Positions 1-34,280 of a stretch of 64,000 nt of DNA are shown here, piece by piece; within the stretch, counting starts at the first letter, position 1; every line of letters starts with the position of its first letter. Origin of the DNA: Acidimicrobiia bacterium. GTDB taxonomy: Bacteria; Actinomycetota; Acidimicrobiia; Spongiisociales; ZC4RG35. The stretch spans positions 3,962 to 67,961 of the forward strand of contig JBOGEV010000118.1 in NCBI GenBank assembly GCA_050742015.1, in the 5' to 3' direction. The notes beneath the pieces were generated by a model, which made no database searches, was not told where the DNA came from, and saw only the letters and a list, made by a program, of their open reading frames with translations. Both the position numbers and the translations under genes were made by a program.

Positions 1-309
1 GCTGCGCCGAATCACCCCTCCCCAGTTCGGGAAGCGGGAATGCTCGGGCCAGGGCAGCTCGAGCATGAGCTCATCTCCGGCATAGGAGCGAAGGCCCGTG
101 ATCAGATGGAACTCGGGGACGTCGAAGTCGAAGCCCATGTTCTGGAGTTGGAGCACCGCCCGCGGGGTGAGGCCATCGCCGCACGTCTTGTCGCGGGGGT
201 ACTCCTTCTTCTCGACGAGTGTCACCTGGTGCCCGTCCCGCGCCAGCCAGTAGGCAGCAGCCGAGCCGGCCGGGCCACCACCGACGACGAGCACGGAGGG
301 GGAGGGCAT
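1..309 (-). CDS. FAD-dependent geranylgeranyl-reductase-family oxidoreductase (MenJ-like), N-terminal 103 codons only; remainder lies beyond the window edge
   Basis: Not in the ORF track because it runs off the edge. Reverse complement from 309 reads MPSPSVLVVGGGPAGSAAAYWLARDGHQVTLVEKKEYPRDKTCGDGLTPRAV... This shows a GxGxxG FAD fold plus the PRDKxCGDGLTPRA block typical of this family. Confidence 0.6.
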   Translation of the reverse strand, partial: MPSPSVLVVGGGPAGSAAAYWLARDGHQVTLVEKKEYPRDKTCGDGLTPRAVLQLQNMGFDFDVPEFHLITGLRSYAGDELMLELPWPEHSRFPNWGGVIRRS

Positions 310-380
310 GGGCGCAGAGGTTAGATACCGGCAACCGGTAGCCGGGCCACATGCTCGATCCTGGGGTATAACGTGCGCTT

Positions 381-998
381 GTGAATGAAATCCCAAAGGC
401 CACGGTGGTCAGGCTCCCCCGGTACCTCCGTCTGCTGGAGGACCTGGACTCATCCCGGGATGTGATCAGCTCCGAGGAACTGGCGGTGGCGGCCGGGGCC
501 AACGCAGCGAACGTTCGACGCGACCTCTCTCACCTCGACTTCCACGGGGTCCGTGGCATCGGGTACTCGGTTGGCGAGCTGATGGCCCGGATCCGCCAGG
601 AGCTCGGCATCGCCGAAAGGAGGCGGGTTGCCATCGTCGGAGCCGGCAACCTGGGCCGAGCCCTGGCCAACTACGGAGGGCTGGGACGACGCGGATTCGA
701 TGTAGTCGCCCTTTACGACACCGACGTCCGAAAAGTGGGCTCCAAGGTCGGAAGTGTCACCATCCAGCACCTCGACGTCCTCGACGGTGACTCTCGTTCC
801 GACCTCTTCGAGATCGCCATCCTGGCCGTGCCTGCCGTCGCCGCCCAGCAGGTCGCCGACCGTCTGGTCGAGCACGGGATCCGTTCCATCCTCAACTTCG
901 CCCCGGTCCGGGTCAAGGTTCCCGAAACGGTCTCCGTTCGCCAGGTCGACCTCTCGATGGAGCTACAGGTGTTGAGCTACTACGGCTCCCGTCTTTGA
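381..998 (+). CDS. rex: Redox-sensing transcriptional repressor Rex
   Basis: 205 aa with a GTG start. N-terminal IPKATVVRLPRYLRLL DNA-binding block and VAIVGAGNLGRALANY Rossmann NAD(H) site. Confidence 0.9.
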   Translation: MNEIPKATVVRLPRYLRLLEDLDSSRDVISSEELAVAAGANAANVRRDLSHLDFHGVRGIGYSVGELMARIRQELGIAERRRVAIVGAGNLGRALANYGGLGRRGFDVVALYDTDVRKVGSKVGSVTIQHLDVLDGDSRSDLFEIAILAVPAVAAQQVADRLVEHGIRSILNFAPVRVKVPETVSVRQVDLSMELQVLSYYGSRL

Positions 999-1096
999 TG
1001 GCGGCCGACTTCGACCGAGGCCAACCCTCACAGACGCCAGTCGGCCGCCGCGCGGCCAGGTCACCCTCCAGGCGACCGAGTCCAGTTGTTTTCCTC

Positions 1097-1168
1097 CCGG
1101 AGGGGGATGTGGCCCGTAATTCCCCCCTCCCTGGCTCCGTCGGTAATCCCCCCTTCGGAGGAAAAACG
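1097..1168. repeat. C-rich repeat element, copy A (intergenic, rex / small membrane gene)
   Basis: 1120..1168 aligns to 9196..9245 with 43/49 identical positions and one 1-nt gap (hand alignment). The weaker ccggaggggga / gcggaggaagga similarity lies further 5'. Contains GGAGGGGGA...TCCCCCCTCC complementarity. Confidence 0.55.
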
Positions 1169-1173
1169 ACGCC

Positions 1174-1545
1174 CTAAGCCGAGGACTTCTCTTGTACCTC
1201 TTCGTATTGGTGGAGGGCGACCAGGAAAGCCAGGAACAGGACCAGGGAGACCAACAAATAGGTGATCGGGATGATCCGGATTTCCAAGGCGTTGAGACCC
1301 TCGATGTCGTCGGGCTTGGGGCCACGAGGGGCATAGACCACGAACAGCATCGAGGTGATCGTCAGCCAGCCAAACACCGCCGACCCGGTCACCAGAAAAC
1401 CAAGCCTCTTGCCCAAATTGGTCCAGTTGAACAGGTAGATCGAGCCGTAGAACAACAACACCGCGCCCAGGGTCAAGATGATCCCGGTGACGAAGAGGTT
1501 GGCCGAAAACAACGACCGGAAGAACTCACGGAAGAACACTGACAC
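1174..1545 (-). CDS. Small polytopic membrane protein, last gene of the Rieske/cytochrome b operon
   Basis: 123 aa with 3-4 hydrophobic spans. Overlaps the upstream cytochrome c gene by 20 nt. No family recognised. Confidence 0.55.
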   Translation of the reverse strand: MSVFFREFFRSLFSANLFVTGIILTLGAVLLFYGSIYLFNWTNLGKRLGFLVTGSAVFGWLTITSMLFVVYAPRGPKPDDIEGLNALEIRIIPITYLLVSLVLFLAFLVALHQYEEVQEKSSA

Positions 1546-3448
1546 CCTCCTTCCCGTCCATGTTTCCGGCCCTCAAGAACCGGGCCAACAACTTGATGTC
1601 CTCCACGGCGAGACTTGGACCGAAAGCAGGCATCCGGCCGGAGCCGAATCCGTTAAGACCGTACGGGGTCTCAGCCTCCGAGCCTCGGATCAGGAATTGG
1701 AGCAGGAGGTCGTCCTCGGGGTTCTCGGTGGCATCGCCGAACTGAACGGTGGGCCGGCCGTCCCACAGGGCGGGACCGAAGCCGCCCGAGCCCGCCTCCT
1801 GGGTGTAGGGGACACCGGCACTGAATCCCGCGGTGTGACAACGAGCACAGTTGGAGTTGAAGAGGCCGACAGCCCGCTCCGCCTCCTCGACCGAAGACCC
1901 CATGGCCTCGGCCACGCCATCGAAGTCGATGGAGTACAGCTGGGCCTCGAGTGACTCCTCGAGGAAGTCGAGACCGGCGCCTTCGGTGTCCAGAAGCGTC
2001 TTCTGGTTGTCGGTCGCCACGGTGAGCTGGGAGGCCAAACCCTCCAGGCTCCCGACGAAGGCGCTGGCGGTGGCGGCGTCCGGCTCGCCTCCGACCGAGG
2101 CCGGGTTGGTCGGGTCGAGGCTGATCAGGGTGATCTCGGAGGGTGTGGTGGCCGTGATCGCCGCCCCGACCTGGGTCGTGATGTCGTTCTCGGCAGCGGT
2201 GGAGAGCCCGTCCCCGTCGGGATCGGAGCCGCCCTCGATGGCGGCCGTCGTGGTGGCGAGCAACTCGGTGGCCGCTTCGATCGGTTCCTCAGCTGTCGTC
2301 GCCGCCTCCAGGGCAGCGGCCAGCTCGTTGGCTCCGTCCAGGTCTTCGACGACGCCCGGGACCTCGATCCCCGCCGCCTCAGCGGCGGCACGGGTCTCCT
2401 CGATCTCGGTCAGAGCAGCGGTGCTGAGCCCCACGGCCGGGTCGACGGAGCCGGCCTCGATGGCCGCCTCGACCGCAGCCACGTTGTTGAGGACGATGGG
2501 ATCGGTCTCCGAGGCGGTCTGGAGGGCGGCCAGCGCCTCATCGGCCAGCTCGGCATCCGGTGTCTCCGGGTCGAGGGTCACCGGCTCCATGATGCGGAAC
2601 CCGTCCACGGCCTCCTGGGAGATGGCGCTGAGCTCGGTCTCGGCGGCATCGGAAAGGCCGTCGGCATCGGTGTCCAGCCCGGTGCCCGCTCCGTCGAGAG
2701 CCTGGCGCGAGGCGGTCGCCAACGGCACCAGGAGGTCGGCGTCGGCCGGCGCCGATTCGATGTCGGCGACTACCTGGCTCTGGGTCAGGATGGCGGCTTC
2801 CACGGTGGCGTCGGCACCTTCCAGCGTGCCCAGGGCAGCGCTTATGCCGGGCTCCACCTCTCCCAACGCCTCGGGTTGGGAGATCTGGATCGTCTTCAAA
2901 TAGTTGACGACGTCGACCACCTGCTCCTCGTTGAGAGGCCCGCCACCGGGGACCCCCCAGGCCGGCATCGGGGTGTTGCCCCGCCCGTAGGTGACCCAGA
3001 AATTGACCTCGTCCTCGTCGTACCGGAAGAAGACATCGTTGAGGGAGGGTGCCGCCCAGCTCACGGTCACGCCCGACCGCTTCTCGACATAGGGGGCAAC
3101 CCCACCCGAGCCCTCGGGGCCATGGCAGGAGAAGCAGGCGAACTCCTCCACGATGTGGTCGCCGCGCGCAATGGAACCCGCGGCGAACTCGTCGACGAAG
3201 CCCTGCTGTCGGGCGGGCTCGGTGAGGAAGTACAAAGGGAGGGATATGGCGAGAAAGGCGGAGAACGCAATGGCCGCCTTTTGCCCGCCCTCGAGGCGGC
3301 GGGTCTCGATCTGTTCGTCGTCGATCCCGGGTCGGAGGTTGAGCGACACCTCCTCGCCACCACGGTTGCGGATGGCCGACACGAAGAGCATGCCCAGCCA
3401 GGCGATGCCGGCAACGACGGCGATGACCGTGATGATGCCGGCGGTCAT
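1526..3448 (-). CDS. Membrane-anchored dihaem c-type cytochrome (QcrC-like) with a long acidic insert between the haem domains
   Basis: 640 aa. Two CxxCH motifs (CFSCH aa105-109, CARCH aa534-538) and N-terminal TM helices. ATGA overlap with the Rieske gene at 3445-3448. Confidence 0.8.
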   Translation of the reverse strand: MTAGIITVIAVVAGIAWLGMLFVSAIRNRGGEEVSLNLRPGIDDEQIETRRLEGGQKAAIAFSAFLAISLPLYFLTEPARQQGFVDEFAAGSIARGDHIVEEFACFSCHGPEGSGGVAPYVEKRSGVTVSWAAPSLNDVFFRYDEDEVNFWVTYGRGNTPMPAWGVPGGGPLNEEQVVDVVNYLKTIQISQPEALGEVEPGISAALGTLEGADATVEAAILTQSQVVADIESAPADADLLVPLATASRQALDGAGTGLDTDADGLSDAAETELSAISQEAVDGFRIMEPVTLDPETPDAELADEALAALQTASETDPIVLNNVAAVEAAIEAGSVDPAVGLSTAALTEIEETRAAAEAAGIEVPGVVEDLDGANELAAALEAATTAEEPIEAATELLATTTAAIEGGSDPDGDGLSTAAENDITTQVGAAITATTPSEITLISLDPTNPASVGGEPDAATASAFVGSLEGLASQLTVATDNQKTLLDTEGAGLDFLEESLEAQLYSIDFDGVAEAMGSSVEEAERAVGLFNSNCARCHTAGFSAGVPYTQEAGSGGFGPALWDGRPTVQFGDATENPEDDLLLQFLIRGSEAETPYGLNGFGSGRMPAFGPSLAVEDIKLLARFLRAGNMDGKEGVSVLP

Positions 3449-4335
3449 GCCTCAGCCACAGCGCTGATGCAGCTCGGCCCCTGGGGGTACTCGACACTTG
3501 GCGCGGGTGCCCGGGGCGTTTCGATGATATCCCCGGTCCTGATGAAGAAATTGCCCCCGCGGTTCTCCACGACGAACCGATCGAGGTTGCGTGGCGCGGG
3601 CCCGCCGAAGTACTCACCGGCGGCGTTGTACCTCGAGCCATGGCAGGGGCACTCGAAGCCCTGGGACGGTGCGCACCACGGGACCCGGCACCCGAGATGG
3701 ACACAACGCATGTAGAGCGCCATGAGACCGTCGGTGGCCACGCTCTTGCCCTCGAACTGCTCGGACAGTTCTTGCGGAGCGGGGACCAGGTAGGCCCGGG
3801 CCTCGGGGATGAACAGTGGCAGCACCCCCCCGGTCGATGTGAACACTTGTGAGCGGAGATCGGCAACGGGCCCGGCATCGATATCGGCGCCGAAACCTCC
3901 GGTCAGCTTGGGCCAGAAGAAGGCGAGGTAGTAGAGACCTTGGGCGGCGAGAAAAGTGCCGAAGGTGGCAGTGATGGCCCGATTGAAGAACTGGCGCCGG
4001 CTCACCCCACCCTCCTCGGGCGACACCTCGACTATCCGTTGCTCCTCGATGATCTGGACGCCGGCTCCGGCCCCATTCGCCTCGACCGGCACCGGCTCGA
4101 GCTCCTCAGGCTCGGCCACCTCCTCGACCTCGGGCTCGGCCACGGTCACGACCCGGGGAGGGATGGTCACGGTCCGGGCCGACCTGTCGGCGACTCTGGT
4201 CTCCTCGGTCACCCCAGCGAAGGGATCGGGTTTCTCGGCGGTTTGGGACCGGCGATAGGCGACCGCGAACGCCCCGGCCGCCCCGAGGATCGCCACCACG
4301 GCGACGGCAATCAGGGCGGCGTTGGTCAAGGTCAT
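3445..4335 (-). CDS. Rieske [2Fe-2S] subunit of a cytochrome bc-type complex
   Basis: 296 aa. CVHLGC...CPCHGS Rieske boxes and an N-terminal TM anchor. ATGA overlaps at both ends. Confidence 0.9.
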   Translation of the reverse strand: MTLTNAALIAVAVVAILGAAGAFAVAYRRSQTAEKPDPFAGVTEETRVADRSARTVTIPPRVVTVAEPEVEEVAEPEELEPVPVEANGAGAGVQIIEEQRIVEVSPEEGGVSRRQFFNRAITATFGTFLAAQGLYYLAFFWPKLTGGFGADIDAGPVADLRSQVFTSTGGVLPLFIPEARAYLVPAPQELSEQFEGKSVATDGLMALYMRCVHLGCRVPWCAPSQGFECPCHGSRYNAAGEYFGGPAPRNLDRFVVENRGGNFFIRTGDIIETPRAPAPSVEYPQGPSCISAVAEA

Positions 4336-5495
4336 TCGAACTGCACCCAGTCCTTGAGGTCGTCGAAGAAGACTCCGTCCTGCCAGGGGTAGGAGAAGTT
4401 GAAGCCGAGACCGCGGAACAGCACGCCGAAGATGGTGAGCGTGGCCGCCCCAGCGAGGAACACCGAATAGAGGGCGATGGCGAACTTGCGGTCACTGGGC
4501 CTGGTCGATGGGTTCTTGTCGACGTAGGGCACCAAGAAGAACCCGATGATCCCGGTGACGGTCGGGATCATCACCCCGGCGATCTGAGGGTCGAAGTAGG
4601 ACAGCAGCTCCTGCAGACCGAGGAAGTACCACGGCGCCTTCGACGGGTTGGGAGTGGCGTTGAAGTTGGCCGGATCGAGCAACGGGGAGTGGATGATCAC
4701 CGACAGGATCACCAGGAATCCGGTGATGGCCAGGAGCGCCCCGAACTCCATCAGCATCAGGTGGGGCCAGGTGTTGACCTTGTCCGTGGGCTCCGCTTTG
4801 ACAGCCTGGATCGCCCTGGCCTTGACCACGGTGAGCAGACGCTGGGAGCGCACCCCTTCCGGTGTCCCCTTCGGCGGGACGGTGGGACGGGGGCTGACCA
4901 AAGCCGCCACCTTGCCATTGCCGGCGCCATCGCCCTCCGGAGCGGGGCGATCCTCGACTGCGGTGGCCACGGACGCGGCGGCGGGCTCGGCCGTGGTCGC
5001 GGCCGCTATCTCCTCGGCGGGGGGAGTTCCCCCAGGCTCACCGGGGGCCGCGGGTTCGGCCGCAGGCTCGGCCGCTGGCTCCTCTGTGGCCGACTCCGGC
5101 GGGGACACGGCTTGTTCACTGTCTTCCACCGGCGGCGCTTCGGTGGGCGGGGCAGGGGAAACCTCGGCTTCAGTCTCGGCCTCCACCTCGGGCTCGGCGT
5201 CGGCGGCGTCATCGACCGGGGCCTCTTCCACCGGCTCCGGCTCGTCTTCGACCGACTCGATTGCCTCTTCGATCTCCTCGGAGCGCTCGGCGGCCTCCTC
5301 CATCTCCTCGGCCACGGTCTCTTCAGAGGCCGCCGCGGACTCGGCCTCGCCAGCCGGCTCCGGTTCGGCCGACGGGGGCGGAGTGGGCGGTGCCTCGCCT
5401 TTCATCTCGGCCAGGACCTGCTCAACGGGCAGCCCCAACGCCTTGGCCTTGGCCTCAGCCGACCTTCTGAGAAGACTCTCTGGGATTTCGGTCAT
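4332..5495 (-). CDS. Cytochrome b C-terminal half / subunit IV-type protein with a long acidic N-terminal extension
   Basis: 387 aa. The C-terminal 3-TM region carries NPSKAPWYFLGLQELL (PEWY-type Qo motif region). The N-terminus carries the shared RSA..A.A...G..V..VL module plus a Glu/Ala/Pro-rich linker. Confidence 0.85.
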   Translation of the reverse strand: MTEIPESLLRRSAEAKAKALGLPVEQVLAEMKGEAPPTPPPSAEPEPAGEAESAAASEETVAEEMEEAAERSEEIEEAIESVEDEPEPVEEAPVDDAADAEPEVEAETEAEVSPAPPTEAPPVEDSEQAVSPPESATEEPAAEPAAEPAAPGEPGGTPPAEEIAAATTAEPAAASVATAVEDRPAPEGDGAGNGKVAALVSPRPTVPPKGTPEGVRSQRLLTVVKARAIQAVKAEPTDKVNTWPHLMLMEFGALLAITGFLVILSVIIHSPLLDPANFNATPNPSKAPWYFLGLQELLSYFDPQIAGVMIPTVTGIIGFFLVPYVDKNPSTRPSDRKFAIALYSVFLAGAATLTIFGVLFRGLGFNFSYPWQDGVFFDDLKDWVQFE

Positions 5496-5504
5496 AACGA
5501 CTCC

Positions 5505-6281
5505 TTAGAGCGGCCCGGATATCCCGCCATCCTTGCGCACCCGCCAGAAATGGACGGCGAGGAAGAGCACGAGGATGAACGGCAACGCCAGCACGTGCAG
5601 GACATAGAAGCGGAGCAGGGTGGCGCCGGAGACCTCCACTCCGGCGAGGAGGGCGAACTTGACCTGGCTGCCGACGACGGGGACGAAGCCGGCCATGTTG
5701 GTTCCGACCGTCACCGCCCACAGCGCAAGCTGGTCCCAGGGGAGGAGATATCCGGAGAAAGAGAGGAGCAGGGTCAGGAACAGGAGCACCACGCCGACCA
5801 CCCAGTTGAACTCCCGGGGCGGCTTGTACGCGCCGTGATAGAAGACCCGGCTCATGTGCAGGAACACCGAGAGCACCATCAGATGGGCCCCCCATCGGTG
5901 CATGTTCCGTACCAGAGACCCGAAGGCAACGTTGGTGGACAGAGCCTCGATGTCCGCATAGGCCGTCTCCGCCGACGGCGTGTAATAGAACATGAGGAAG
6001 ATCCCGGTGATGGTCAGCAGGATGAACAGGAAGAAGCTGAGCCCACCCAGACACAGGGTGTAGGAGAGCCTGACCCCGTGCCGCTTTACCTTCACCGGGT
6101 GGAGGTGATAGAGCACGTTGTTCATCACCACATACGACCGGTTCCTCGGGCTGTCCGAGTAACCCTTCTTGAAGGGCGAGCCGGGACGCAGGATCGATTC
6201 CGCGACCTGCGAGCCCCAGAGTTTCTCGTTGGCCTCTTTGATTCTGTCCTTGAGTCCGGTCTTACCGTTGCCGTTGGCCAA
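5505..6281 (-). CDS. Cytochrome b6-type protein (N-terminal, haem-binding half of cytochrome b)
   Basis: 258 aa, 4 TM. Conserved His pairs in [12 protein letters not shown] and [22 protein letters not shown]. Stops where b6-type proteins stop. Confidence 0.9.
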
Positions 6282-6289
6282 ACCGCCTC

Positions 6290-6739
6290 CTACCAGCGCA
6301 TTCCATAGGCGTATCCATTCTTGAAGTCACGTTGCCCGGTGTCGAGATCCCACGGGCGCCGATCGAGGCCGAGCTCGGCGGCCTGGTCGGCCAGTGAGCC
6401 CTCGAACTTGCCCAGGGTGATGACATTGGTCGGGCAGCGGTCGACGCAGAGAGCACATCTGGTGCACTCGTCTTCGTCGACAACGAAGAAACCAAGGTTC
6501 TGAGGGTCGTCCCCCGGGTGGTCGACGTTGACCCCTTCGGTGATGGCATCCAGAGACAGGTAGTGGATGCACTTCCAGGGGCAGATGTCGACACAACCCT
6601 CACACAGGATGCACTCCGACTGGTCGATGTGGAGGAACTGCTTCGGGCGCAGTTTGTCGGTGAAGTAGTCACCTTCGACCACCGCCAACTGGTAGTCATC
6701 GCGGTACGGAGGGGTCTCGTCGACGACACCCTTGGGCAT
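6290..6739 (-). CDS. 2x[4Fe-4S] ferredoxin-domain protein encoded inside the bc operon
   Basis: Internal ATG of track ORF 6290..7297 at 6739; 149 aa. Motifs [12 protein letters not shown] and [16 protein letters not shown] overlap with the upstream gene's stop, and 8 nt upstream of the b6 gene. Confidence 0.85.
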
Positions 6740-7344
6740 CAGCCTTCTCCCCTCACCAATGGCCGCCCGTATGGCGACCTCACTTCGGGCTTCTCCGCCG
6801 ACGGCGGCGGCCCCTGTCTGATCTTCTGCAACTGGATGGTGAACACCGCGGCCGCAACCAGCATCACGATGTGATATCCCATCGAGATGGAGTCCTTGAT
6901 GGCGGCCCAGCTGAGCTGGACATCGTTGCCCAACACCAAGAACGGCGGGATGGCGACGGCCACCCTCTGCGACGACCAGTCGAGATCGGTCTGAGCGAAG
7001 TTGAGCCATTCCGAGGGAACCATCCCGAAGATGAGGACCAGCTCGATCCAGGTGATGAAAGAGGCGAACAGGGCCCGAGCCCAGGTCATCTTCAGGTTGA
7101 GCACCCAGACGAAAAGGGCGCCGACGACCAGCATCTGGGAAGCGGCGAACACCACGAGGTAGCCGAGGCCCTTGAGGATGTGACCTCTCGGGATCCAGTC
7201 GAAGAAGCCGGCATCCTGCTCCGGAGGGAGACTGGTGAAGTGGATCCAGATCACCCCGACGACCAGAGCGAGAAAGCCGAGCCCGAGCAACCCCCATCCG
7301 ATGCTCTTGCGTCTGCTGTCACTCAGTTCTGCCAGGCGGTACAT
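6739..7344 (-). CDS. Polytopic membrane protein, first gene of the bc operon (family not recognised)
   Basis: 201 aa with about 5 hydrophobic spans. Translationally coupled (ATGA) to the ferredoxin gene. Confidence 0.55.
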   Translation of the reverse strand: MYRLAELSDSRRKSIGWGLLGLGFLALVVGVIWIHFTSLPPEQDAGFFDWIPRGHILKGLGYLVVFAASQMLVVGALFVWVLNLKMTWARALFASFITWIELVLIFGMVPSEWLNFAQTDLDWSSQRVAVAIPPFLVLGNDVQLSWAAIKDSISMGYHIVMLVAAAVFTIQLQKIRQGPPPSAEKPEVRSPYGRPLVRGEG

Positions 7345-7501
7345 CTCTCGTCTTCGGGTGCGGTCGAATTACCTGTTCACGTCGTTTGTACCACAACCCG
7401 GGTGTCGTTACAGAACCTGGCGAGCGCGTCAGGGGTGTCTGCGGAAGGAATCGGCCGAGCAGTTATGCTCCCGCCCGTCCCGTTCCGCGACGAGGGAACC
7501 G

Positions 7502-8974
7502 TTGGCCGCAACCCAAACTGCAGATATCAGGGCCCTGCTCGGAGCGGGCGCCGAGGATCGGGTCGCTGCCGCCCACTTCCTGGCCGGCGCCATGTTCCTG
7601 GTCTTGGCCGGCGCCCTGGAGCTCCTCGCCCTTTTCTCTCTGAGGTTCGCCGGGCTCTCGCCGGTGAGCTTCGGCCGGGCGGAGTCGATGGCCAATGTCA
7701 CCGTCATGCTCGGTTTCCTGGTGCTGACCCTGTCCGGAGGCATCTACTACGTGCTCCCCCGTCTCACCGGTACCAGGCTCTGGCGAAAGGAACTGGCCAT
7801 CCTCGGCCTGGTCGGAACATCGGGGCTAGTCGTCATCGACGTGCTCGCGGTGGTCCTCGGTCTCGGCGACGGCCGTCAGCCGTTCGGGCTTCCCTGGTGG
7901 CTCCACATCCCGATGCTCGGACTGCTGGCCATCCCGTTCGCCATCACCATGATGACGATCCGGCGAAGGGAGGAGAAGCGAAGCTTCGTCACGCTCTGGT
8001 TCGTCATCGGCGGCGCGACGTGGCTCCCACTGCTCTATCTGGTCTACTTCGCCGGCGAGCTGCCTTTTGTGTCCTCGTTGGGCGAGGCGTACACAGACCT
8101 CTTCTTCACCGCCGGCTTCGTCACACTCTGGGTGTTCACGGTGGGCAGCGGGCTCTTCTATTACACCGTCGTGAAGGAGCTCGAGATTCCCCTTGCCTCC
8201 CGTCAACTGGCCTCGGTCGGCTTCTGGTCGCTCGGTTTCGCCGCGGTTTGGTGGGGGACGGCTCAGCTCGTGTTCGGCCCCGGTCCGGGCTGGATCGCCG
8301 GCGTCTCGGCGGCGCTCGGGCTTGCCTTCCCAATCGGAGCATTGGCCAACGCCTCGAGCGTCTCCCTCACTCTCCAGGGGCACTGGGAGAAGCTCGGTGA
8401 GAGGCCGGGCGTCGTGTCGGGGGTCGTCGGCCTCTATCTCGGGGTAGTCGTGGCCGTGCTGGCCAGCTTCGCCTCCTTCCCCTCGGTGGGATCGGTCACC
8501 GCTCTCACTGCATACTGGGAGGCGATCGAGTACGGCGCTCTGTTCGGGGTGGGCACTCTGCTTGCCGCAGGACTCACCTTCGAGGCGTTGCCCAGGGTCT
8601 CGGGTCGCGACCTGAGCTCCCTCGATCGACCACGGTCTTTCAACCGATGGACCGTGATCGGTGTCGGCGGTGTCATGCTCAGCCTCATCGCTTCCGGCCT
8701 CGTCAGCGGTTATTCCTGGGTGGCCGGCTCCAACAGCGCCGCGTATATCAACGCGGGGGAAGGTTGGGCGCAAGGCGCCGGAGCCGCCGAGGTCCTGCTC
8801 CTCATCGCTTTCGGGTTCGGCATCATCGCCTTCATCGGCCAGTTGGCATATGCAGCCACGGTCATCGGCACCATCACCATCGGCCGTGCCGTGCCCCAGG
8901 AGGTGCTGGTCTACGGCTCTGAGGGAGAGCAGAGCGTTGGGACGGTCGCTGTGGAAGAGACCGACGATGAGTGA
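7502..8974 (+). CDS. Haem-copper-oxidase subunit I-like (CcoN-like) 12-TM protein apparently lacking the canonical His ligands
   Basis: Tail of track ORF 7235..8974. Proposed TTG start at 7502 after GAGGGA; the start is uncertain. 12 hydrophobic spans. N-terminal pattern AAAHFLAG...FGRAESMANVTV...GGIYYVLPRL resembles CcoN. Only 3 His in the whole protein. Confidence 0.55.
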   Translation: MAATQTADIRALLGAGAEDRVAAAHFLAGAMFLVLAGALELLALFSLRFAGLSPVSFGRAESMANVTVMLGFLVLTLSGGIYYVLPRLTGTRLWRKELAILGLVGTSGLVVIDVLAVVLGLGDGRQPFGLPWWLHIPMLGLLAIPFAITMMTIRRREEKRSFVTLWFVIGGATWLPLLYLVYFAGELPFVSSLGEAYTDLFFTAGFVTLWVFTVGSGLFYYTVVKELEIPLASRQLASVGFWSLGFAAVWWGTAQLVFGPGPGWIAGVSAALGLAFPIGALANASSVSLTLQGHWEKLGERPGVVSGVVGLYLGVVVAVLASFASFPSVGSVTALTAYWEAIEYGALFGVGTLLAAGLTFEALPRVSGRDLSSLDRPRSFNRWTVIGVGGVMLSLIASGLVSGYSWVAGSNSAAYINAGEGWAQGAGAAEVLLLIAFGFGIIAFIGQLAYAATVIGTITIGRAVPQEVLVYGSEGEQSVGTVAVEETDDE

Positions 8975-9800
8975 GCTGAGCGCGGCCGCCGCAGCCGCCC
9001 TCGGCATCCCCGAGGCCATCGTGGAGCGCTCCGCTGCCGCCCGCGCCGAAGAGACCGGGATGACCGTCGACGAGGTGCTGACGGCATGGGCCGGAGGTGG
9101 AGAAATTCCCGCCGCGGCAGCGCCTCCGACTCCGGAAGAGCAGGCGGCAGAACCCGAGGCGGCCCCGGTCGAGACGCCTGCCGCGGAGGAAGGAGTTCCC
9201 CCCTCCCCGCCTCCGGCGGTACTCCCCCCTTCGGGGGGAGAAACGGGTACCCCCTCCCCGGTGCCGGCCCCGGTCGCCGATTCGGGGAAGCCACCGGTCC
9301 TGGTGGGAGAGGCGGACAACCCGATCGCCGTGCTGGTCGGGGTGGTGGCCATGTTCGTGGCGGTCTTCCTGGTCGGTTTGGTGGGGCCAGCCCTACCCGC
9401 CGAGAATCCGGGGGCCCGATCCAGTGAGCTCCCCTACAGCGAGGCGGGTCTGCGCGGCCAGCACGTCTACTCGTCGGTCGGATGCGCCTCCTGTCACACC
9501 CAGATGGTCCGGCCGGTGGTGGCCGACGTCGGCCTGGGTGCCGTGACCCTCAACGACAGCAACCAGGTGCTCGGCTCCCGGCGTTTCGGCCCCGACCTCT
9601 CCGACGTCGGGTCGAGGATCTCGGGCAGTCAGATCGAAGGCGTGATCGGAGGGCTGGGGGGGCATCCTTCCCAGAGCCTTTCGGCTGAGGATCTCGCCGA
9701 CATCGTCGCCTATTTGCTCGAGTCTCAGACGATGGAGGCGGCTCCGGCAGAGCCAGCCGATGAGGGAGACGCCGACGAAGAGGAGCCGGCGGAGTCATGA
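8967..9800 (+). CDS. CcoO/FixO-like monohaem cytochrome c subunit
   Basis: ATG at 8967 gives an 8-nt overlap with the upstream stop. GCASCHTQMVRP...RRFGPDLSDVG matches the CcoO signature. Order: N-terminal shared module, Pro/Ala/Glu linker, one TM. Confidence 0.7.
   Translation: MSELSAAAAAALGIPEAIVERSAAARAEETGMTVDEVLTAWAGGGEIPAAAAPPTPEEQAAEPEAAPVETPAAEEGVPPSPPPAVLPPSGGETGTPSPVPAPVADSGKPPVLVGEADNPIAVLVGVVAMFVAVFLVGLVGPALPAENPGARSSELPYSEAGLRGQHVYSSVGCASCHTQMVRPVVADVGLGAVTLNDSNQVLGSRRFGPDLSDVGSRISGSQIEGVIGGLGGHPSQSLSAEDLADIVAYLLESQTMEAAPAEPADEGDADEEEPAES
9183..9245. repeat. C-rich repeat element, copy B (inside the linker-coding part of the CcoO-like CDS)
   Basis: See copy A. Contains a perfect CTCCCCCC-TTCG-GGGGGGAG hairpin (9222..9240). 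In frame it encodes VPPSPPPAVLPPSGGETG. Confidence 0.55.
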
Positions 9801-10846
9801 GCGAGCTCAGCGCCGCAGCGGCCGCCGCGCTCGGTGTCCCCGAGCCGATCGTCGAGCGGTCGGCGGCAGCCCGGGCCGCCGAGACCGGGATGACCGTCGA
9901 CGAGGTGCTCTCGGCCTGGGCGGGCGGTGGAGCCGTCGCCGCTGCGACGCCGGCCGCAGCCGAGGAGACGCCCGCAGCCGAGCCGGAGGCAGAGGCGCCC
10001 GCCGAGGAAGCCGGCCCCGCGCCGGCGCCGGAGATGCCCTCCGAACCCGTGGCACCTGCCGCCGCGGCCCAGCCCTCCGCCGTCACCCGCTCCCCGATCC
10101 CGGCCGAGGTGACCGCAGCCGAGGCGGCGAGCCTGCCCGAGGTGGTCACCGTTCCCACCGCCGGCATCCGGGAAAAGACCAACTTCGTCGTCCCCCGCTG
10201 GCTGGCGGCGGTTTTCCTGATCATCCCGGCATTCGCACTGTTCGCCCTCGGCGGCTCAGCCACCGGCGAGTGCGGAGACGCCACCGAGTTGAGCACCGAT
10301 GTGATCACCGGTGAGGTGGTCAATTGCGATGGAACCGAGTTCACCGGCTCGGGCGCCGGTGGCGGCGGTTCCGACTTCATCGCCATGGGTGAGGACGTCT
10401 ATGCCAATGTTGCTAGCTGCGACGGATGTCATGGCGCCACCGGTGGTGGTGGCGTCGGTCCGGCGTTCGGAAGCGTCGTCTCCACTTTTGGTGCCTGTGC
10501 CGACCATATCGAATGGGTGACACTGGGATCGGCGGGCTTCGAAGCAGCGGGTGAGAGCACTTATGGAGACCCGAACAAGCCCATTGCCGGGGGCATGCCC
10601 CCGTTCGGTGGGACCTTGAGCGAGGAGCAATTGGCCGCGGTGGTCGCCTTCGAGCGGGTCCGCTTCGGTGGGGCGGACCCCGCCGAGACCCTCGTCGATT
10701 GCGGTCTGGCCCCGGCCGAAGGGGAGGAAGGCGGCGAGGGCGAGGCGCCCGGTGAGGAGACCCCCGGTGAAGAGGCGCCGCCCGAGGGAGAGGCGACCAC
10801 CACCACCGTGAGTGGCGCCGAAGCCGGACTCAGCCAGACTCCCTGA
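9797..10846 (+). CDS. Membrane-anchored class I c-type cytochrome (CcoP-like role possible)
   Basis: 349 aa. CDGCH haem motif and GGMPPFGG Met-ligand region. Same N-terminal module as the upstream gene. ATGA overlap at 9797-9800. Confidence 0.8.
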   Translation: MSELSAAAAAALGVPEPIVERSAAARAAETGMTVDEVLSAWAGGGAVAAATPAAAEETPAAEPEAEAPAEEAGPAPAPEMPSEPVAPAAAAQPSAVTRSPIPAEVTAAEAASLPEVVTVPTAGIREKTNFVVPRWLAAVFLIIPAFALFALGGSATGECGDATELSTDVITGEVVNCDGTEFTGSGAGGGGSDFIAMGEDVYANVASCDGCHGATGGGGVGPAFGSVVSTFGACADHIEWVTLGSAGFEAAGESTYGDPNKPIAGGMPPFGGTLSEEQLAAVVAFERVRFGGADPAETLVDCGLAPAEGEEGGEGEAPGEETPGEEAPPEGEATTTTVSGAEAGLSQTP

Positions 10847-10853
10847 CCCAGGG

Positions 10854-11102
10854 TCACACCCGGCGCAGTGCCCGTCGCAATGATGCCCGATCGATCCGAC
10901 CCTCGGCGACCACGTCATCGCCGGGCCCGAGAAGCACCGGGATCCGCATTCCGTAGTCCCTGATCAACACGTCATCGGTGTCGATATCGACTTCTTCCAG
11001 GGTCCCGCCCCGTCGTCGAATCGCCCGTTCTACCAGGGGACGAGCCTCATCACAGAGATGGCATCCGGGTCGGGTGAAAAATTTGAAGGCTAAATGTTTC
11101 AA
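10854..11102 (-). CDS. Glutaredoxin-like small thiol-disulfide protein (DUF836-type)
   Basis: 82 aa. FTRPGCHLCDEA CxxC motif in a thioredoxin-fold context. TTG start. Confidence 0.75.
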   Translation of the reverse strand: MKHLAFKFFTRPGCHLCDEARPLVERAIRRRGGTLEEVDIDTDDVLIRDYGMRIPVLLGPGDDVVAEGRIDRASLRRALRRV

Positions 11103-11245
11103 GTAACCACTCTGGGTGACCGATAATGGAGGCGCATGCAGGAAGGAGGGTCAACCGTTCCCCTCATACCAAGGGCACGTTCGTCCAAGGTGTGAACGGA
11201 TAGCCTCCCAGCCCGCCCCACGGTACGGAACTCTCCTTCGTGTAG

Positions 11246-11281
11246 ATGAGGCCCCCGCCCAGCGGGGGCCTCATCATTTTT
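11246..11281 (+). terminator. Intrinsic-terminator-like hairpin with T-tract on the + strand
   Basis: ATGAGGCCCCCG / CGGGGGCCTCAT 12-bp perfect stem with a 5-nt loop, followed by CATTTTT. No annotated + strand gene ends here. Confidence 0.5.
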
Positions 11282-11376
11282 CGCACCGTCCTCAGGGTCT
11301 GCCATCGTGGGCCCCATGCGACCCGCCACAGCCATAGTCCTGGTGATCCTCTTGGTGATCATCGCCGTGGCCGGGA

Positions 11377-12210
11377 TCATCCAGCTGGTGTCGATCCTCT
11401 CCCAGTGAGGGTGACCGCCACCCCCGACGTCAAGTTCAGTTCCTCGTCGGCCGCACCGTCCCTAACGGCAATGGCGATCAGCCCCACTGAGTCGACATGG
11501 ATCAGTGGCTCGCCGGAGTCGACGTCGGAGTAGGCGGTCGCCCAGGGAATCGTGTGCAGGGTTGCCCCCACCTTCACCGTCAGCGTCGATCCGGGGGCGA
11601 GGCCGACGGCAGCGAGATCGTCAGGCCCGATGTTGGTCTGAACGTTCCCGAAGCTATCCACCCACCATGCCTCCCCCGTCACCACATTCCCTTCGGTCTC
11701 GGGAAGGGGGAGGAGCAGCGGCTGCACCGATCCCGGGCCCAGCTCGGCGCCGAGATCGAGGATCGACGCCTCGCCCGAGGCGAGCAGCCCGGCGGCCGGA
11801 GCAAACACATCACGGCCATGGAACGTCTCCCCAGGAGATGGGATTCTCGCCTCCGGATTGTCGATGGAGACGATGACGGTGGCCCCACCCACCATCGCCA
11901 CCGCCGGGGAGAGGACACCGTTGTCGGGACCGACGAAGTATCCCCATTCGGTTTCCAGGGCCAGGGCCCTGCGCTCCGATCCGACGCCGGGGTCCACCAC
12001 CACCAGGGCCACTCCTTCGGGTAGGTACTGGATGGCCCGGGTCAGGGCCAGGGCGGCCGCCCGCACGTCGCCCCGTGGTGTCCCGTGCCCGACGTCGATG
12101 ACCCGGGACTCCGGTGACATCTTGGACAGCACCCCGTGCACCACCCCGACGAACTCGTCGGCGAGTCCGAAGTCGGAGAGGAAACTGATGGGGAGTGCGT
12201 TCTGCGGCAT
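11377..12210 (-). CDS. S-adenosyl-L-methionine hydroxide adenosyltransferase family protein (DUF62)
   Basis: 277 aa. FLSDFGLADEFVGVVHGV, VVVDPGVGSERR and FHGRDVFAPAAG blocks typical of the family. Confidence 0.85.
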   Translation of the reverse strand: MPQNALPISFLSDFGLADEFVGVVHGVLSKMSPESRVIDVGHGTPRGDVRAAALALTRAIQYLPEGVALVVVDPGVGSERRALALETEWGYFVGPDNGVLSPAVAMVGGATVIVSIDNPEARIPSPGETFHGRDVFAPAAGLLASGEASILDLGAELGPGSVQPLLLPLPETEGNVVTGEAWWVDSFGNVQTNIGPDDLAAVGLAPGSTLTVKVGATLHTIPWATAYSDVDSGEPLIHVDSVGLIAIAVRDGAADEELNLTSGVAVTLTGRGSTPAG

Positions 12211-13234: not shown

Positions 13235-13927
13235 ATGCTGGGGAAGCGACGATGGCTCTTGGTGCTGGTCGGGGTCCTGGTGACCGCCGGCGTGTCCGTG
13301 GCTGCCGCCGCCGACTCCGGCACCGAGAGCGAATTCCTCTCCCTGATCAACTCGACCCGGGCCAACAACGGGCTGGGGTCCCTTCAGGTCGACGGAGGGC
13401 TTCGGGCTCACGCCCGGAATCACACCCAAGCGATGATCGAATCCGGCGGCATCTACCACTCCAGTGACGGCGAGCTCTCGGCCGCGGCCGGAAGTGGCTG
13501 GTCCCGGGTCGGAGAGAACGTGGGACGGGGTCAGGACCCCTCGTCCCTGCACAGCGCCTTCATGGCCTCGCCCGGTCACCAAGCCAACATCCTCGGTGAC
13601 TACAACTACGTGGGGATCGGCACCGGGAGCGCCGACGGCTATCTCTATGTCACCGTCGTGTTCATGAAGAAGGGCGAAACCGCTCCGCCCCCCACCGAGG
13701 CCCCACCCCCGACCGAGGCCCCGCCCCCGGCCTCAGACTCCCCCGGCACGACGCCCGCTCCCGCCCCTGATCCAAGCGAGCCGGGGCCGGCATCGACCAC
13801 CACGACCTCCACAACCACCACGACCCCGCCCCCGACCACGACCCTGATCGTGCCCCCCGACAAGGCGGTCGTCGCCGGTCAGTCGTGCCTCGAGGCAACT
13901 CGATACTCGAGCATCTGTCAGAACTGA
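13235..13927 (+). CDS. Secreted CAP/SCP (PR-1-like) domain protein with Pro/Thr-rich tail
   Basis: 230 aa. Signal peptide, then a CAP block (GENVGRGQ, SPGHQANIL, YVGIGT), then PPPTEAPPPTEAPPP and poly-T segments. Confidence 0.85.
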   Translation: MLGKRRWLLVLVGVLVTAGVSVAAAADSGTESEFLSLINSTRANNGLGSLQVDGGLRAHARNHTQAMIESGGIYHSSDGELSAAAGSGWSRVGENVGRGQDPSSLHSAFMASPGHQANILGDYNYVGIGTGSADGYLYVTVVFMKKGETAPPPTEAPPPTEAPPPASDSPGTTPAPAPDPSEPGPASTTTTSTTTTTPPPTTTLIVPPDKAVVAGQSCLEATRYSSICQN

Positions 13928-33233: not shown

Positions 33234-34280
33234 TCACATTGTGGCCAGAGCAACGTTGGTGAGGGTGGGCCCGTAGCTCTCGCGGAGGAGTAGCTTGCGT
33301 TCCAGCGCTTCGATGACGGCCGAGGCGAAATCGACCTCGTGGAGGGAGGAGGCGCTGCCCAGCCCTCCCGGGCTGAACACGTTCGCTTCCATCAGCTTGT
33401 CTCCTACGATGTCGAGCCCGACCAGGAACATCCCGTCCTGGATCAGCTTGGGTCGGGCCATCCTCACCACGTCCAGCATCTCGTCGGTCACCTTCACCTT
33501 CTCGGCCTTCCCTCCGACGTGCATATTCGATCGGACATCGTCGTCCTCGTTGACCCGTCGAAAAGCGGCGACCTTCCCGTTCACCTCCAACGGCACCCCG
33601 TTCATCACGAAGAGGCGGACGTCGCCCTTTTCCGCCTCCTTCAGGTACTCCTGGACCACCACATAGCCGTCTCGGGTGATGGTCTCGATGATCTGGTTCA
33701 GGTTTTGACCCTTCTTCCCATCGATGAGGAACACCCCTTGTCCCCCCGACCCCTGCAGTGGCTTGAGCACCGCCCGGCCGCCGAGCTCGCTCACGAACTC
33801 TTTTATGTCGGCATCGGTCCGCGAGATGAGAGTGCGCGGCCGTACTTCCTCGGGAAAGTGCTGGAAGTAGGTCTTGTTGATCGCATCAGCGAGATGCACC
33901 GGGTCGTTGACCACCAACACCCCGGCCGCTGCCGCCAGCTGGCCGAAGAGCACACCGGATGCCTGGGCCCAGGGCCGCTCGGTGGCATCCTCAGCGGGGT
34001 CGTTGCGCAACAACAGGACGTCCAACTCGTCGAGGGTGATCAGCTCAGGCTCCGTCTCCGGGCTCTGGATGTCCTCGAGGAAGCTCTTCAGCGAGCGATA
34101 CGTCTTGTCCTGAGGAGCGCGTGCTCTCGCCCGCACTTCACCGCTGGCGATGTTGGAGAGGTCACCGACACCCATCATCCAGACGTCATGACCCCGCTTC
34201 CGGGCGGCGAGGGCCAGGCGAGTCGTGCTGTACTGGGGGTGTTCGGTCGCGATTTCGTTGACTACCAGCCCGAGTCTCAT
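33234..34280 (-). CDS. Glutathione-synthetase-like (GshB/RimK-type) ATP-grasp ligase
   Basis: 348 aa. VVNDP, LKPLQGSGGQGVF, VVQEYL and RSNMHVGG ATP-grasp blocks. Its stop abuts the STAND gene's stop. Confidence 0.8.
   Translation of the reverse strand: MRLGLVVNEIATEHPQYSTTRLALAARKRGHDVWMMGVGDLSNIASGEVRARARAPQDKTYRSLKSFLEDIQSPETEPELITLDELDVLLLRNDPAEDATERPWAQASGVLFGQLAAAAGVLVVNDPVHLADAINKTYFQHFPEEVRPRTLISRTDADIKEFVSELGGRAVLKPLQGSGGQGVFLIDGKKGQNLNQIIETITRDGYVVVQEYLKEAEKGDVRLFVMNGVPLEVNGKVAAFRRVNEDDDVRSNMHVGGKAEKVKVTDEMLDVVRMARPKLIQDGMFLVGLDIVGDKLMEANVFSPGGLGSASSLHEVDFASAVIEALERKLLLRESYGPTLTNVALATM

Follow-up and report, generated by a model that had tools for sequence, protein, structure and literature searches.

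A conserved seven-gene Rieske/cytochrome b operon of Acidimicrobiia that includes a dicluster ferredoxin and two further membrane proteins

A Rieske/cytochrome b operon that carries, among the genes for its catalytic core, a ferredoxin gene and genes for two additional membrane proteins raises the question of what kind of complex it encodes and what the extra products contribute. Such an operon occupies positions 1174 to 7344 on the minus strand of a 64,000-nucleotide (nt) stretch of DNA from an Acidimicrobiia bacterium (GenBank assembly GCA_050742015.1, contig JBOGEV010000118.1, forward-strand positions 3,962 to 67,961), referred to here as the window. The seven genes supply a complete set of complex III cofactor-binding proteins together with three co-inherited products, and the most likely product is a complex III with a b6c-type core, acting in respiration as a menaquinol:cytochrome c oxidoreductase. 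Menaquinone is the quinone of Actinomycetota, and a respiratory role is indicated by the genomic neighborhood, in which rex is always found and nuoA-N, a caa3-type oxidase or cytochrome c maturation genes occur depending on the lineage. The accessory set, composed of the ferredoxin and of proteins with four and three transmembrane (TM) helices, may connect the complex to cytoplasmic redox chemistry.

The operon products are labeled g1 to g7 in the order of transcription, and the products of the divergent plus-strand genes u1 to u3. An open reading frame (ORF) check confirmed the seven minus-strand ORFs called in a first-pass annotation of this DNA, and Pfam and NCBIfam profile searches together with a motif scan bore out all of its domain assignments. 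The operon opens with g1 (6739–7344), a protein of 201 amino acids (aa) with four predicted TM helices, followed by g2 (6290–6739), a 149-aa 2x[4Fe-4S] ferredoxin with two CxxCxxCxxxCP motifs and a Fer4 match. The cytochrome b is encoded in two parts, a b6-type N-terminal half of 258 aa with a TTG start (g3, 5505–6281) and a subunit-IV-type C-terminal half of 387 aa (g4, 4332–5495). The Rieske [2Fe-2S] protein of 296 aa (g5, 3445–4335) and a membrane-anchored dihaem cytochrome c of 640 aa (g6, 1526–3448) come next, and g7 (1174–1545), with 123 aa and three predicted TM helices, closes the operon. The coding-strand junctions from g1 to g7 measure −1, +8, +9, −4, −4 and −20 nt. The two short gaps and the ATGA overlaps at 4332–4335 (g4/g5) and 3445–3448 (g5/g6) are as originally described, but the g1/g2 junction, read as another ATGA, is TGATG, a 1-nt overlap in which the A at 6739 is common to both genes. 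The 20-nt overlap of g6 and g7 holds for the GTG start at 1545; an alternative GTG at 1539 has better Shine-Dalgarno spacing and would shorten it to 14 nt. The TTG start of g3 is preceded by a GGAGG that overlaps the g2 stop codon. GC content at third codon positions is 0.83–0.88 in the six ORFs scored (g2 was left out, its long ORF being excluded).

The evidence that these genes form one operon is comparative, at the level of gene spacing and synteny. It comes from the best 80 loci of a g1 pattern scan over one genome per species, in which 128 genomes were positive; counts take in only the loci with enough flank for the gene in question. All 80 are from Acidimicrobiia metagenome-assembled genomes (MAGs), some of which carry wrong automatic labels. 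The seven genes lie on one strand and in the same order in every locus with enough flank. Spacing is kept as well, at −1 nt for g1/g2 in 71 of 79 loci, +8 nt for g2/g3 in 45 of 69, +9 to +13 nt for g3/g4 in most, −4 nt for g4/g5 in 53 of 56 and for g5/g6 in 34 of 55, and −20 nt for g6/g7 in 21 of 43. Identity to the window products across these loci is 66–99 % for the ferredoxin (mostly >85 %), 80–96 % for cytochrome b, 67–93 % for g7 and 50–87 % for g1. Since order and spacing recur across the 80 loci, the arrangement is far beyond chance, and the comparison gives strong support to g1–g7 as a single translationally coupled operon. Matches in a scan for promoters and terminators inside the operon were not above chance. 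A terminator-like hairpin with a T-run (1171–1186, minus strand), a consensus match only, overlaps the g7 stop codon. The tightly coupled unit proposed in the first-pass annotation is thus upheld for its seven genes and extends, in gene order, to Acidimicrobiia loci and three more actinobacterial lineages; the annotation had overlooked a divergent, co-conserved trio of CcoN-like, CcoO-like and cytochrome c genes and a convergent rex gene, to which we return below.

Several lines of evidence identify the core as a split, b6-type cytochrome b. The g3 protein matches Pfam Cytochrome_B with an E value of 1e-47. Its best curated model is NCBIfam ExtP, named for Geobacter, at 302 bits against a cut-off of 290, with the match beginning at residue 52, while the b6 model scores 211 bits. 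The closest solved structure is cytochrome b6 (6rqf_I, 163 bits); solved proteobacterial and mitochondrial cytochromes b score about 130 bits and actinobacterial QcrB chains 80–90 bits. The haem ligands are H128 and H142 on helix B (spacing 13) and H229 and H244 on helix D (spacing 14, as in b6), and these four histidines are, like Cys77, 100 % conserved in 73 sequences. Cys77 lies in a CLGG motif that aligns with the YCLGG of b6, whose cysteine binds haem cn, and by inference haem ci would be covalently held at this position. With four TM helices in g3, three in g4, this CLGG motif, the 13/14 histidine spacing and a b6-like ISGPL ending at the g3 C-terminus (...GGISGPL), the split into a b6-type half and subunit IV that had been proposed earlier is well founded. 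The g3 protein has in addition a conserved N-terminal extension of about 50 residues (FRPGS.F.KGY.D..R.R), which is cytoplasmic, lies outside the ExtP profile match and is common to all four lineages in which cytochrome b is linked to the ferredoxin. Cytochrome b identity across these lineages is 66–75 % over the regions aligned.

The g4 protein supplies the other half. Residues 275–358 match Cytochrom_B_C, the protein contains APWYFLGLQELL, and its quinol-oxidation (Qo) motif is APWY, within SKAPWYFLGLQELL. The segment TPNPSKAPWYFLGLQELL is identical in six of seven lineage examples compared, the seventh having FLSLQ. Against NCBIfam ExtQ, g4 reaches 50 bits where the cut-off is 150. Its layout consists of a conserved 32-aa N-terminal module, an acidic linker of about 200 aa rich in Pro, Ala and Glu, and then the three C-terminal TM helices; by analogy with b6f topology the module and the linker would be cytoplasmic. 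This low-complexity linker (4780–5390, minus strand) is specific to the window clade and much shorter in sister lineages. The only tandem repeats found by a search for them were short low-complexity arrays within the acidic linkers.

By these profiles and motifs the core is a b6c-type Rieske/cytochrome b complex of the APWY clade and not qcrCAB. The window products fall far under the cut-offs of the actinobacterial NCBIfam models, with 116 bits against 500 for QcrB, 21 against 275 for QcrA and 18.5 against 200 for QcrC, and the cytochrome b is split, so that the earlier claim that the complex is not of qcrCAB type stands. The combination of APWY, CxGG and a split gene places the core in the APWY clade (PMC4122944), a placement that rests on these motifs and on ExtP as the best hidden Markov model (302 against 211 bits). 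The description of the architecture as non-actinobacterial fares less well. It is found in the 128 genomes of the one-per-species scan and in three further actinobacterial lineages, and split APWY/CxGG cytochromes b were reported in 2014 from deep-branching Actinobacteria including Ilumatobacter, for which the strain I. coccineus YM16-304 is given (PMC4122944). Nor does the split point to the Firmicute or cyanobacterial solution that had been suggested, the closest curated model being the Geobacter ExtP of a mixed-phylum APWY clade. The arrangement is a conserved solution of this part of the phylum, and "non-actinobacterial" is only half right.

The remaining redox subunits of the core have features of their own. 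The Rieske protein g5 matches Pfam Rieske and carries the cluster boxes CVHLGC and CPCHGSRY; its best NCBIfam matches are b6f PetC-type models, below cut-off. It is built from an N-terminal TM helix, an acidic linker, an internal twin-arginine translocation (Tat) motif SRRQFF at residue 112 and a second TM helix. Five distant examples tabulated, and the Rieske protein of locus L091, have kept both the internal Tat motif and the Ser and Tyr that follow box II, and CPCHGS.Y with an internal Tat motif is the Rieske signature across lineages. Such Ser and Tyr residues have been used to predict a high potential (PMC3509893). The cytochrome c g6 has two N-terminal TM helices and haem sites CFSCH (residue 105) and CARCH (residue 534), between which an inserted acidic stretch of some 300 aa, peculiar to the window clade, separates the two haem domains; it gave no significant match in Pfam. 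The insert (1940–2880, minus strand) has conserved G.DTD.DG.SD and GSDPDGDG.S motifs with only a very weak hint of TSP3_bac. The counterparts of g6 in sister lineages are dihaem proteins of 304–403 aa or monohaem proteins of about 247 aa.

The ferredoxin g2 is as strongly conserved as the catalytic subunit it accompanies. Its eight cluster cysteines are 99–100 % conserved in 78 sequences, and the mean column identity to the window residue is 0.92, equal to that of cytochrome b (0.92). A motif scan found no TM helix, signal peptide or Tat motif, and the protein is therefore presumed to be cytoplasmic. The family is small and specific, with 23 members at E ≤ 1e-30 and 129 at E ≤ 1e-10 among 1.8 billion cluster representatives (50 % identity); among the names of the cluster members sampled there is no cultured organism. 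A family-specific N-terminal extension (DY.L..V…KPKQF.HIDQ.EC) precedes the cluster domain, and many members end in a GY.YG.R tail, which is GYAYGMRW in g2. Cytochrome b immediately follows the ferredoxin gene in all contexts examined that extend to the downstream gene. This adjacency is seen in the 80 window-clade loci and in the loci of other lineages (L081–L084, L085–L087, L088/L089 and L091/L092), and even on contigs of 1 kb the ferredoxin gene is followed by cytochrome b. A search of solved structures with the ferredoxin returned generic dicluster modules only.

The two membrane proteins are less readily placed. All 1008 database homologs of g1 are named "hypothetical". The protein has conserved motifs FGMVPSEWLNFAQTDLDWSSQR and a cytoplasmic C-terminal tail SPYGRPLV, of which YGRPLV is common to the window clade and the Acidimicrobiales sister group. 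Homologs hold the first operon position in the other lineages (BLAST E 2e-10 to 5e-4, and 0.13 for one truncated ORF call), and g1 and its counterparts have a common helix motif VPxxWL…L.W. A search of solved structures with the g1 profile gave nothing below an E value of about 1. Pfam DUF7139 was a sub-threshold candidate for g1, matched by only 4 of 15 members, and was not used for assignment. The g7 protein is a shortened member of the family encoded by the last gene of the operon, which elsewhere measures 245–341 aa and includes an extracytoplasmic middle domain. Significant BLAST matches connect g7 to the two N-terminal helices of last-gene products of 303 aa (z303, 1e-7), 341 aa (z341 of L091, 1e-8) and 246 aa (z246, 5e-4), with weaker matches to those of 340 aa (z340 of L081, 0.009) and 245 aa (z245, 0.015). 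The last protein of the window clade has lost the middle domain.

Three further lineages carry the module with different surroundings. The first is a group with a 138-aa ferredoxin labeled Acidimicrobiales, with >2000 proteins including a Tara Oceans MAG, in which the order is a 151-aa membrane protein, ferredoxin, b6, subunit IV, Rieske, dihaem cytochrome c and a membrane protein of 303–340 aa, flanked by nuoA-N immediately downstream and rex-hemACDB-hemL upstream. The distance from the operon to nuoA-N is 2 nt in L084 (15047–20417) and about 50 nt in L081–L083 (15233–20417 in L081). The genes for complex I and complex III may thus form one super-operon in this sister group. In a second group, with a ferredoxin of 131–135 aa, >3200 proteins and only the label "Actinomycetota", the same seven positions are found with a monohaem cytochrome c, an additional ORF of 37–41 aa and a convergent rex, and the divergent upstream position is taken by ccdA/resB/resC and a genuine caa3-type oxidase. 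The third has a 139-aa ferredoxin and contigs of 58 % GC, with the same seven genes, a convergent rex and a Ccm (system I) cluster upstream.

How far does this complex resemble those already described? The APWY clade of Kao and Hunte, defined in 2014, consists of split, CxGG-bearing cytochromes b, none of them characterized according to that paper (PMC4122944). Its members belong to delta-Proteobacteria, Chloroflexi, Nitrospirales, Planctomycetes and a small number of Actinobacteria that branch deeply (Rubrobacter, Patulibacter, Conexibacter, Ilumatobacter) (PMC4122944), and the split-cytochrome-b complexes of Geobacter belong to the same mixed-phylum group (PMC3509893, PMC4122944). The window cytochrome b shares with this clade, including Geobacter ExtO/ExtP/ExtQ, the split after helix D, CxGG and APWY; the clade already contained Rubrobacteridae and one Acidimicrobidae strain, and the cytochrome b itself is not new, both the clade and split cytochromes b of deep-branching Actinobacteria being known. 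It differs from the clade members, Geobacter included, in the extra N-terminal extension of g3, and, whereas the actinobacterial gene context was not given in PMC4122944, here it is a fixed operon of seven genes whose cytochrome c binds one or two haems. The Geobacter ext cluster, extHIJKLMNOPQS, encodes a porin, a rhodanese-like protein and 4-, 5-, 10- and 12-haem cytochromes (PMC5877670); neither the window nor any related locus contains one of these partners.

The Firmicute b6c complexes (Bacillus QcrABC, Heliobacterium PetCBDA) offer the same split into b6 and subunit IV, covalent haem ci, a membrane-bound c-type cytochrome, which in heliobacteria is dihaem, and menaquinol as substrate in Gram-positive bacteria (PMC3509893). 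They differ in that the Rieske gene comes first, where the order here is b6, subunit IV, Rieske and cytochrome c; their Qo motif is PDWY or PEWY instead of APWY, and Bacillus fuses subunit IV to cytochrome c. No ferredoxin and no subunit like g1 or g7 is known from them, and the Ser/Tyr high-potential Rieske signature sets the present complex apart. With b6f the core shares the haem-cn cysteine, the spacing of 14 on helix D and the ISGPL end, and b6 is the best solved match of g3. However, there is no cytochrome f, no PetG/L/M/N, no chlorophyll or carotenoid context, and APWY replaces PEWY. The region of haem cn on the cytoplasmic (n) side of b6f is a proposed site of ferredoxin-dependent cyclic electron flow (PMC5600118). 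At most, ferredoxin is a passing soluble partner of b6f, whereas the present operon contains a gene for a dicluster ferredoxin of its own. The QcrCAB complexes of Mycobacterium and Corynebacterium come from the same phylum and likewise have a dihaem cytochrome c, an association with a terminal oxidase locus and a Rieske protein in which an internal Tat signal is combined with at least two TM helices, but their QcrB is a single long fused protein without haem ci and their gene order is qcrC-qcrA-qcrB.

The closest described concept is found in the anammox bacterium Kuenenia, in which an n-side subunit with flavin adenine dinucleotide (FAD) and iron-sulfur clusters in the complexes Kustd1480–1485 and Kuste4569–4574 was proposed to take electrons from haems bN and cN for NAD(P)+ reduction (PMC12954380). 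A high-potential Rieske protein was argued to imply very low-potential b haems in these complexes (PMC12954380; PMC5600118), and with the Ser and Tyr of the window Rieske this argument could apply here with menaquinol. Both systems combine a short haem-ci cytochrome b and subunit IV with an n-side iron-sulfur module, and the anammox complexes may therefore be taken as a precedent for an n-side iron-sulfur branch, as a likeness of concept and not of family membership. Their module is a large FAD- and NAD(P)-binding oxidoreductase with about four iron-sulfur clusters and multihaem cytochromes c, unlike the flavin-less 149-aa protein and dihaem class-I cytochrome c of the window, and the host organisms here are probably aerobic heterotrophs, unlike anammox bacteria. 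We found no literature that describes the ferredoxin or proteins like g1 and g7 in any bc, b6f or b6c complex, in agreement with the first-pass view that they are additional to these complexes, and no paper that describes this operon in Acidimicrobiia; papers on Nitrospina and on Tat tail anchors proved to have no bearing on it. New as far as searched are the fixed seven-gene module that includes the ferredoxin and the two membrane proteins, the breadth of its occurrence in Acidimicrobiia and related lineages, and its link to rex and to oxidase or oxidase-derived genes.

We infer that g1, g2 and g7 are subunits of the complex, and likewise the n-side location of the ferredoxin, its electronic contact with haem ci, the type of quinone and the physiological role. 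Menaquinol would be oxidized and electrons would pass to the membrane-bound cytochrome c of the complex itself. The ferredoxin would be seated on the n face of cytochrome b6 and subunit IV, held there by cytoplasmic elements peculiar to these ferredoxin-linked complexes, namely the extended N-terminus of cytochrome b, the tail at the C-terminus of g1 and perhaps the N-terminal part of subunit IV. In this position its two clusters could act as a short wire, comparable to PsaC on photosystem I, that joins the haem bH/ci-Qn region to a soluble redox partner in the cytoplasm and branches off the low-potential chain. Since the cytoplasmic extensions co-occur with the ferredoxin, and haem ci lies on the n side in b6f, a two-cluster wire is the most economical reading. 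Electron flow might take either direction. Low-potential electrons from the cytoplasm may enter the quinone pool via haem ci, which would amount to the ferredoxin-quinone reductase activity that has long been under discussion for b6f, or electrons bifurcated at Qo may exit to a low-potential acceptor; the latter would be favored by menaquinone as the quinone in combination with a Ser/Tyr-type Rieske protein that is indeed high-potential.

We lean slightly towards this model of a bound n-side iron-sulfur branch as a whole, and several points weigh against it. The association of g1, g2 and g7 with the core is drawn from sequence comparison, and the operon encodes no NAD(P)- or flavin-binding partner. 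The complex may not be the main complex III of these organisms. Haem ci attachment, menaquinone use and Rieske potential are taken from motifs and from what holds for Actinomycetota in general. Structure prediction with AlphaFold2 gave for the ferredoxin (17 sequences) a predicted local distance difference test score (pLDDT) of 43 and for g1 (15-sequence alignment) a pLDDT of 62 and a predicted template modeling score of 0.45, with only four helices credible; both models are too poor for fold searches. The adjacent oxidase-like gene is without metal ligands, and an acceptor for the dihaem cytochrome c is not evident locally.

The additional products could instead serve biogenesis. The locus encodes no CCB-type system for haem ci, g1 and g7 belong to no recognizable family, and members of the last-gene family range in size between 123 and 341 aa, a variation not usual in a core subunit. 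Genes for biogenesis often share a transcript with those of their targets, and in two lineages the operon is flanked by cytochrome c maturation genes. On this basis g1, g2 and g7 might be assembly or maturation factors, for instance for n-side attachment of haem ci to Cys77 or for delivery of iron-sulfur clusters or haem. We consider this unlikely, as the ferredoxin is conserved as strongly as the catalytic cytochrome b and its gene is translationally coupled and, in all lineages, keeps its place after g1 and before cytochrome b; moreover, dicluster ferredoxins are not known to take part in haem ligation, and thioether formation requires no dedicated reductant in the cytoplasm. The strict pairing of its gene with cytochrome b in four lineages with differing flanks, extreme conservation that includes the family-specific N- and C-terminal extensions, and the co-occurring cytoplasmic extensions on cytochrome b likewise make it doubtful that the ferredoxin is a free soluble carrier or redox sensor, co-expressed with the complex, for example under Rex control, and unattached to it. 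The absence of a membrane anchor on g2, its resemblance to the generic dicluster modules NuoI, FwdF, RnfB and PsaC and the constant proximity of rex would fit such a protein, but no Rex operator was found in the promoter region.

A location on the opposite, p side is suggested by the Rieske protein, whose internal Tat motif raises the option that the ferredoxin is exported in folded form together with it and relays electrons between the Rieske cluster and the cytochromes c. Signal-less iron-sulfur partners of Tat substrates exist elsewhere, and partner-dependent export is mentioned in PMC10924467. Nevertheless, the genes for the ferredoxin and the Rieske protein do not adjoin, it would be thermodynamically odd for a low-potential [4Fe-4S] protein to stand as a relay between Rieske and haem c, and by b6f topology the N-termini of cytochrome b and subunit IV and the C-terminal tail of g1 would all be cytoplasmic, which makes export very improbable. 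Finally, GenBank names g3 "selenite/tellurite reduction operon b-type cytochrome ExtP" (MGH8951071.1), and g3 does pass the ExtP equivalog cut-off. Taken at its word, the name implies that the operon is an ExtP/ExtQ-type module for selenite/tellurite reduction or extracellular electron transfer. We give this reading almost no credence, since g4 falls far short of ExtQ and the window and related loci lack the ExtI porin, the rhodanese-like ExtH, the selenocysteine cytochrome ExtKL and the 10- and 12-haem cytochromes, their neighbors being rex, oxidase-like, nuo and cytochrome c maturation genes. Even in Geobacter the role of ExtOPQ is not experimentally established (PMC5877670). Evidently the NCBIfam equivalog model for ExtP also picks up APWY-type cytochromes b from actinobacteria. 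Names given to other products of the operon are of the same kind, with g2 called "NADH-quinone oxidoreductase subunit I" (MGH8951072.1) and g7 "sugar transferase" (MGH8951067.1), the latter supported by no search made here. The names ExtP, NuoI and sugar transferase are misleading in this context and will distort metabolic reconstructions of these lineages.

The bound n-side branch, to which we lean among these explanations, bears on long-standing open questions, namely the role of haem ci/cn and whether ferredoxin feeds directly into the n side of b6f-type complexes. By pairing a dedicated dicluster ferredoxin with a haem-ci cytochrome b, the operon offers a natural system for testing that connection by biochemical and structural means. 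Thousands of sequences, recovered from many soil, freshwater and marine metagenomes and belonging to Acidimicrobiia and related Actinomycetota, conserve the module, which is also relevant to the hypothesis that a cytoplasmic oxidoreductase was part of early cytochrome bc complexes (PMC5600118).

On the other side of the operon, the 157-nt intergenic region (7345–7501) contains two conserved non-coding blocks in an alignment of 45 loci. One lies about 40–85 nt upstream of g1 and reads GGTTCT.T..CG.G.CCCGGGTTGTGGTA.AAACGACGTGAACAGG; the other is the leader of u1, GTTATGCTCCCGCC.GTCCCGTTCCGCGACGAGGGAAC, in which an inverted repeat GTTCC…GGAAC overlaps the Shine-Dalgarno sequence. No Rex operator (TGTGAA-N6-TTCACA, ≤3 mismatches) occurs in the divergent promoter region, window-wide counts being at chance, and Rfam gave no match on positions 1–12000. 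The divergent trio begins with u1 (7502–8974, plus strand), a CcoN-like homolog of heme-copper oxidase subunit I (COX1, E 1e-16) with a TTG start and a GAGGGA Shine-Dalgarno sequence, followed on the same strand by u2 (8967–9800), a CcoO/FixO-like monohaem cytochrome c with CASCH, and u3 (9797–10846), a membrane-anchored cytochrome c with CDGCH. The three genes overlap one another and are co-conserved with the operon in the 80 loci. Aligned to a solved cbb3 CcoN (9g83_t), u1 has lost all six canonical haem and CuB histidines, which are replaced by Ala, Gln, Val or other non-His residues; the one histidine conserved in 74 sequences is at a non-canonical position. Scores are 86 bits against a cut-off of 583 for u1 with the ccoN model and 38 against 201 for u2 with ccoO. 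By metal ligands and by model cut-offs, u1–u3 do not qualify as a cbb3-type oxidase. A COX1-like gene with 31 % identity near the operon in L091 (1–953) is also without the histidines over the part available, whereas the lineage with the caa3-type oxidase has a normal oxidase at the position equivalent to u1. We found no literature on a CcoN without its histidines, and u1 presents an unexplained retention of a catalytic respiratory subunit after the loss of all metal sites.

The trio is connected to the operon by more than position. The N-terminal module of g4, of about 32 residues (IPE.L..RSA.A.A…G..V..VL), is shared with u2 and u3 (hhalign probability 97.4 %, E 1e-11). Its three instances, at 5393–5495 (minus strand), 8967–9100 and 9797–9930 (both plus strand), are the only ones in the window, and in all three proteins the module is followed by a Pro/Ala/Glu-rich linker and then the first TM helix. 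The module matches no significant Pfam family, and subunit IV of the Acidimicrobiales sister group keeps its first half only. Its presence in g4, u2 and u3 links the two divergent operons, either physically or in assembly. A more far-reaching version of the n-side branch would combine these observations in a respiratory machine capped in the manner of PsaC. A high-potential Rieske protein and menaquinol would make bifurcation at Qo strongly asymmetric, electrons would run from bL to bH, ci, the ferredoxin clusters and a cytoplasmic low-potential acceptor, or in reverse via ci to the quinone pool, and in the window clade the complex would be docked through the 32-residue module on a cofactor-less cbb3 descendant that scaffolds c-type cytochromes. 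We regard this version as speculative and rather improbable. If it were true, haem ci would gain a demonstrable physiological partner, and the complex would be a living example of the proposed ancestral cytochrome b with a cytoplasmic oxidoreductase.

Downstream of the operon and convergent with it lies rex (381–998, plus strand), for a Rex-type redox-sensing repressor. It is syntenic in all 50 of the 80 loci whose flank reaches that position, and it adjoins the operon in all four lineages (L081, L085, L086 and L091 being the other examples). The window Rex is 55 % identical to the product of the L091 gene, which has Put_DNA-bind_N and CoA_binding domains. A Glrx-like (DUF836) gene (10854–11102, minus strand) flanks the block on its far side, and a Glrx-like gene is also found next to rex in L085 and L086.

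The remainder of the 64-kb window holds unrelated housekeeping genes only. Two genes for CAP-domain proteins of the cysteine-rich secretory protein family, at 13235–13927 (plus strand) and 36335–37546 (minus strand), have the same domain coordinates (residues 35–142) and may be paralogs or parts of a duplicated segment. At 33234–35524 (minus strand) a gene for a glutathione-synthetase/RimK-type ATP-grasp protein follows directly downstream of one for a MATCAP (tyrosine carboxypeptidase-like) protein, an arrangement suggestive of a pair of peptide-tail ligase and peptidase.

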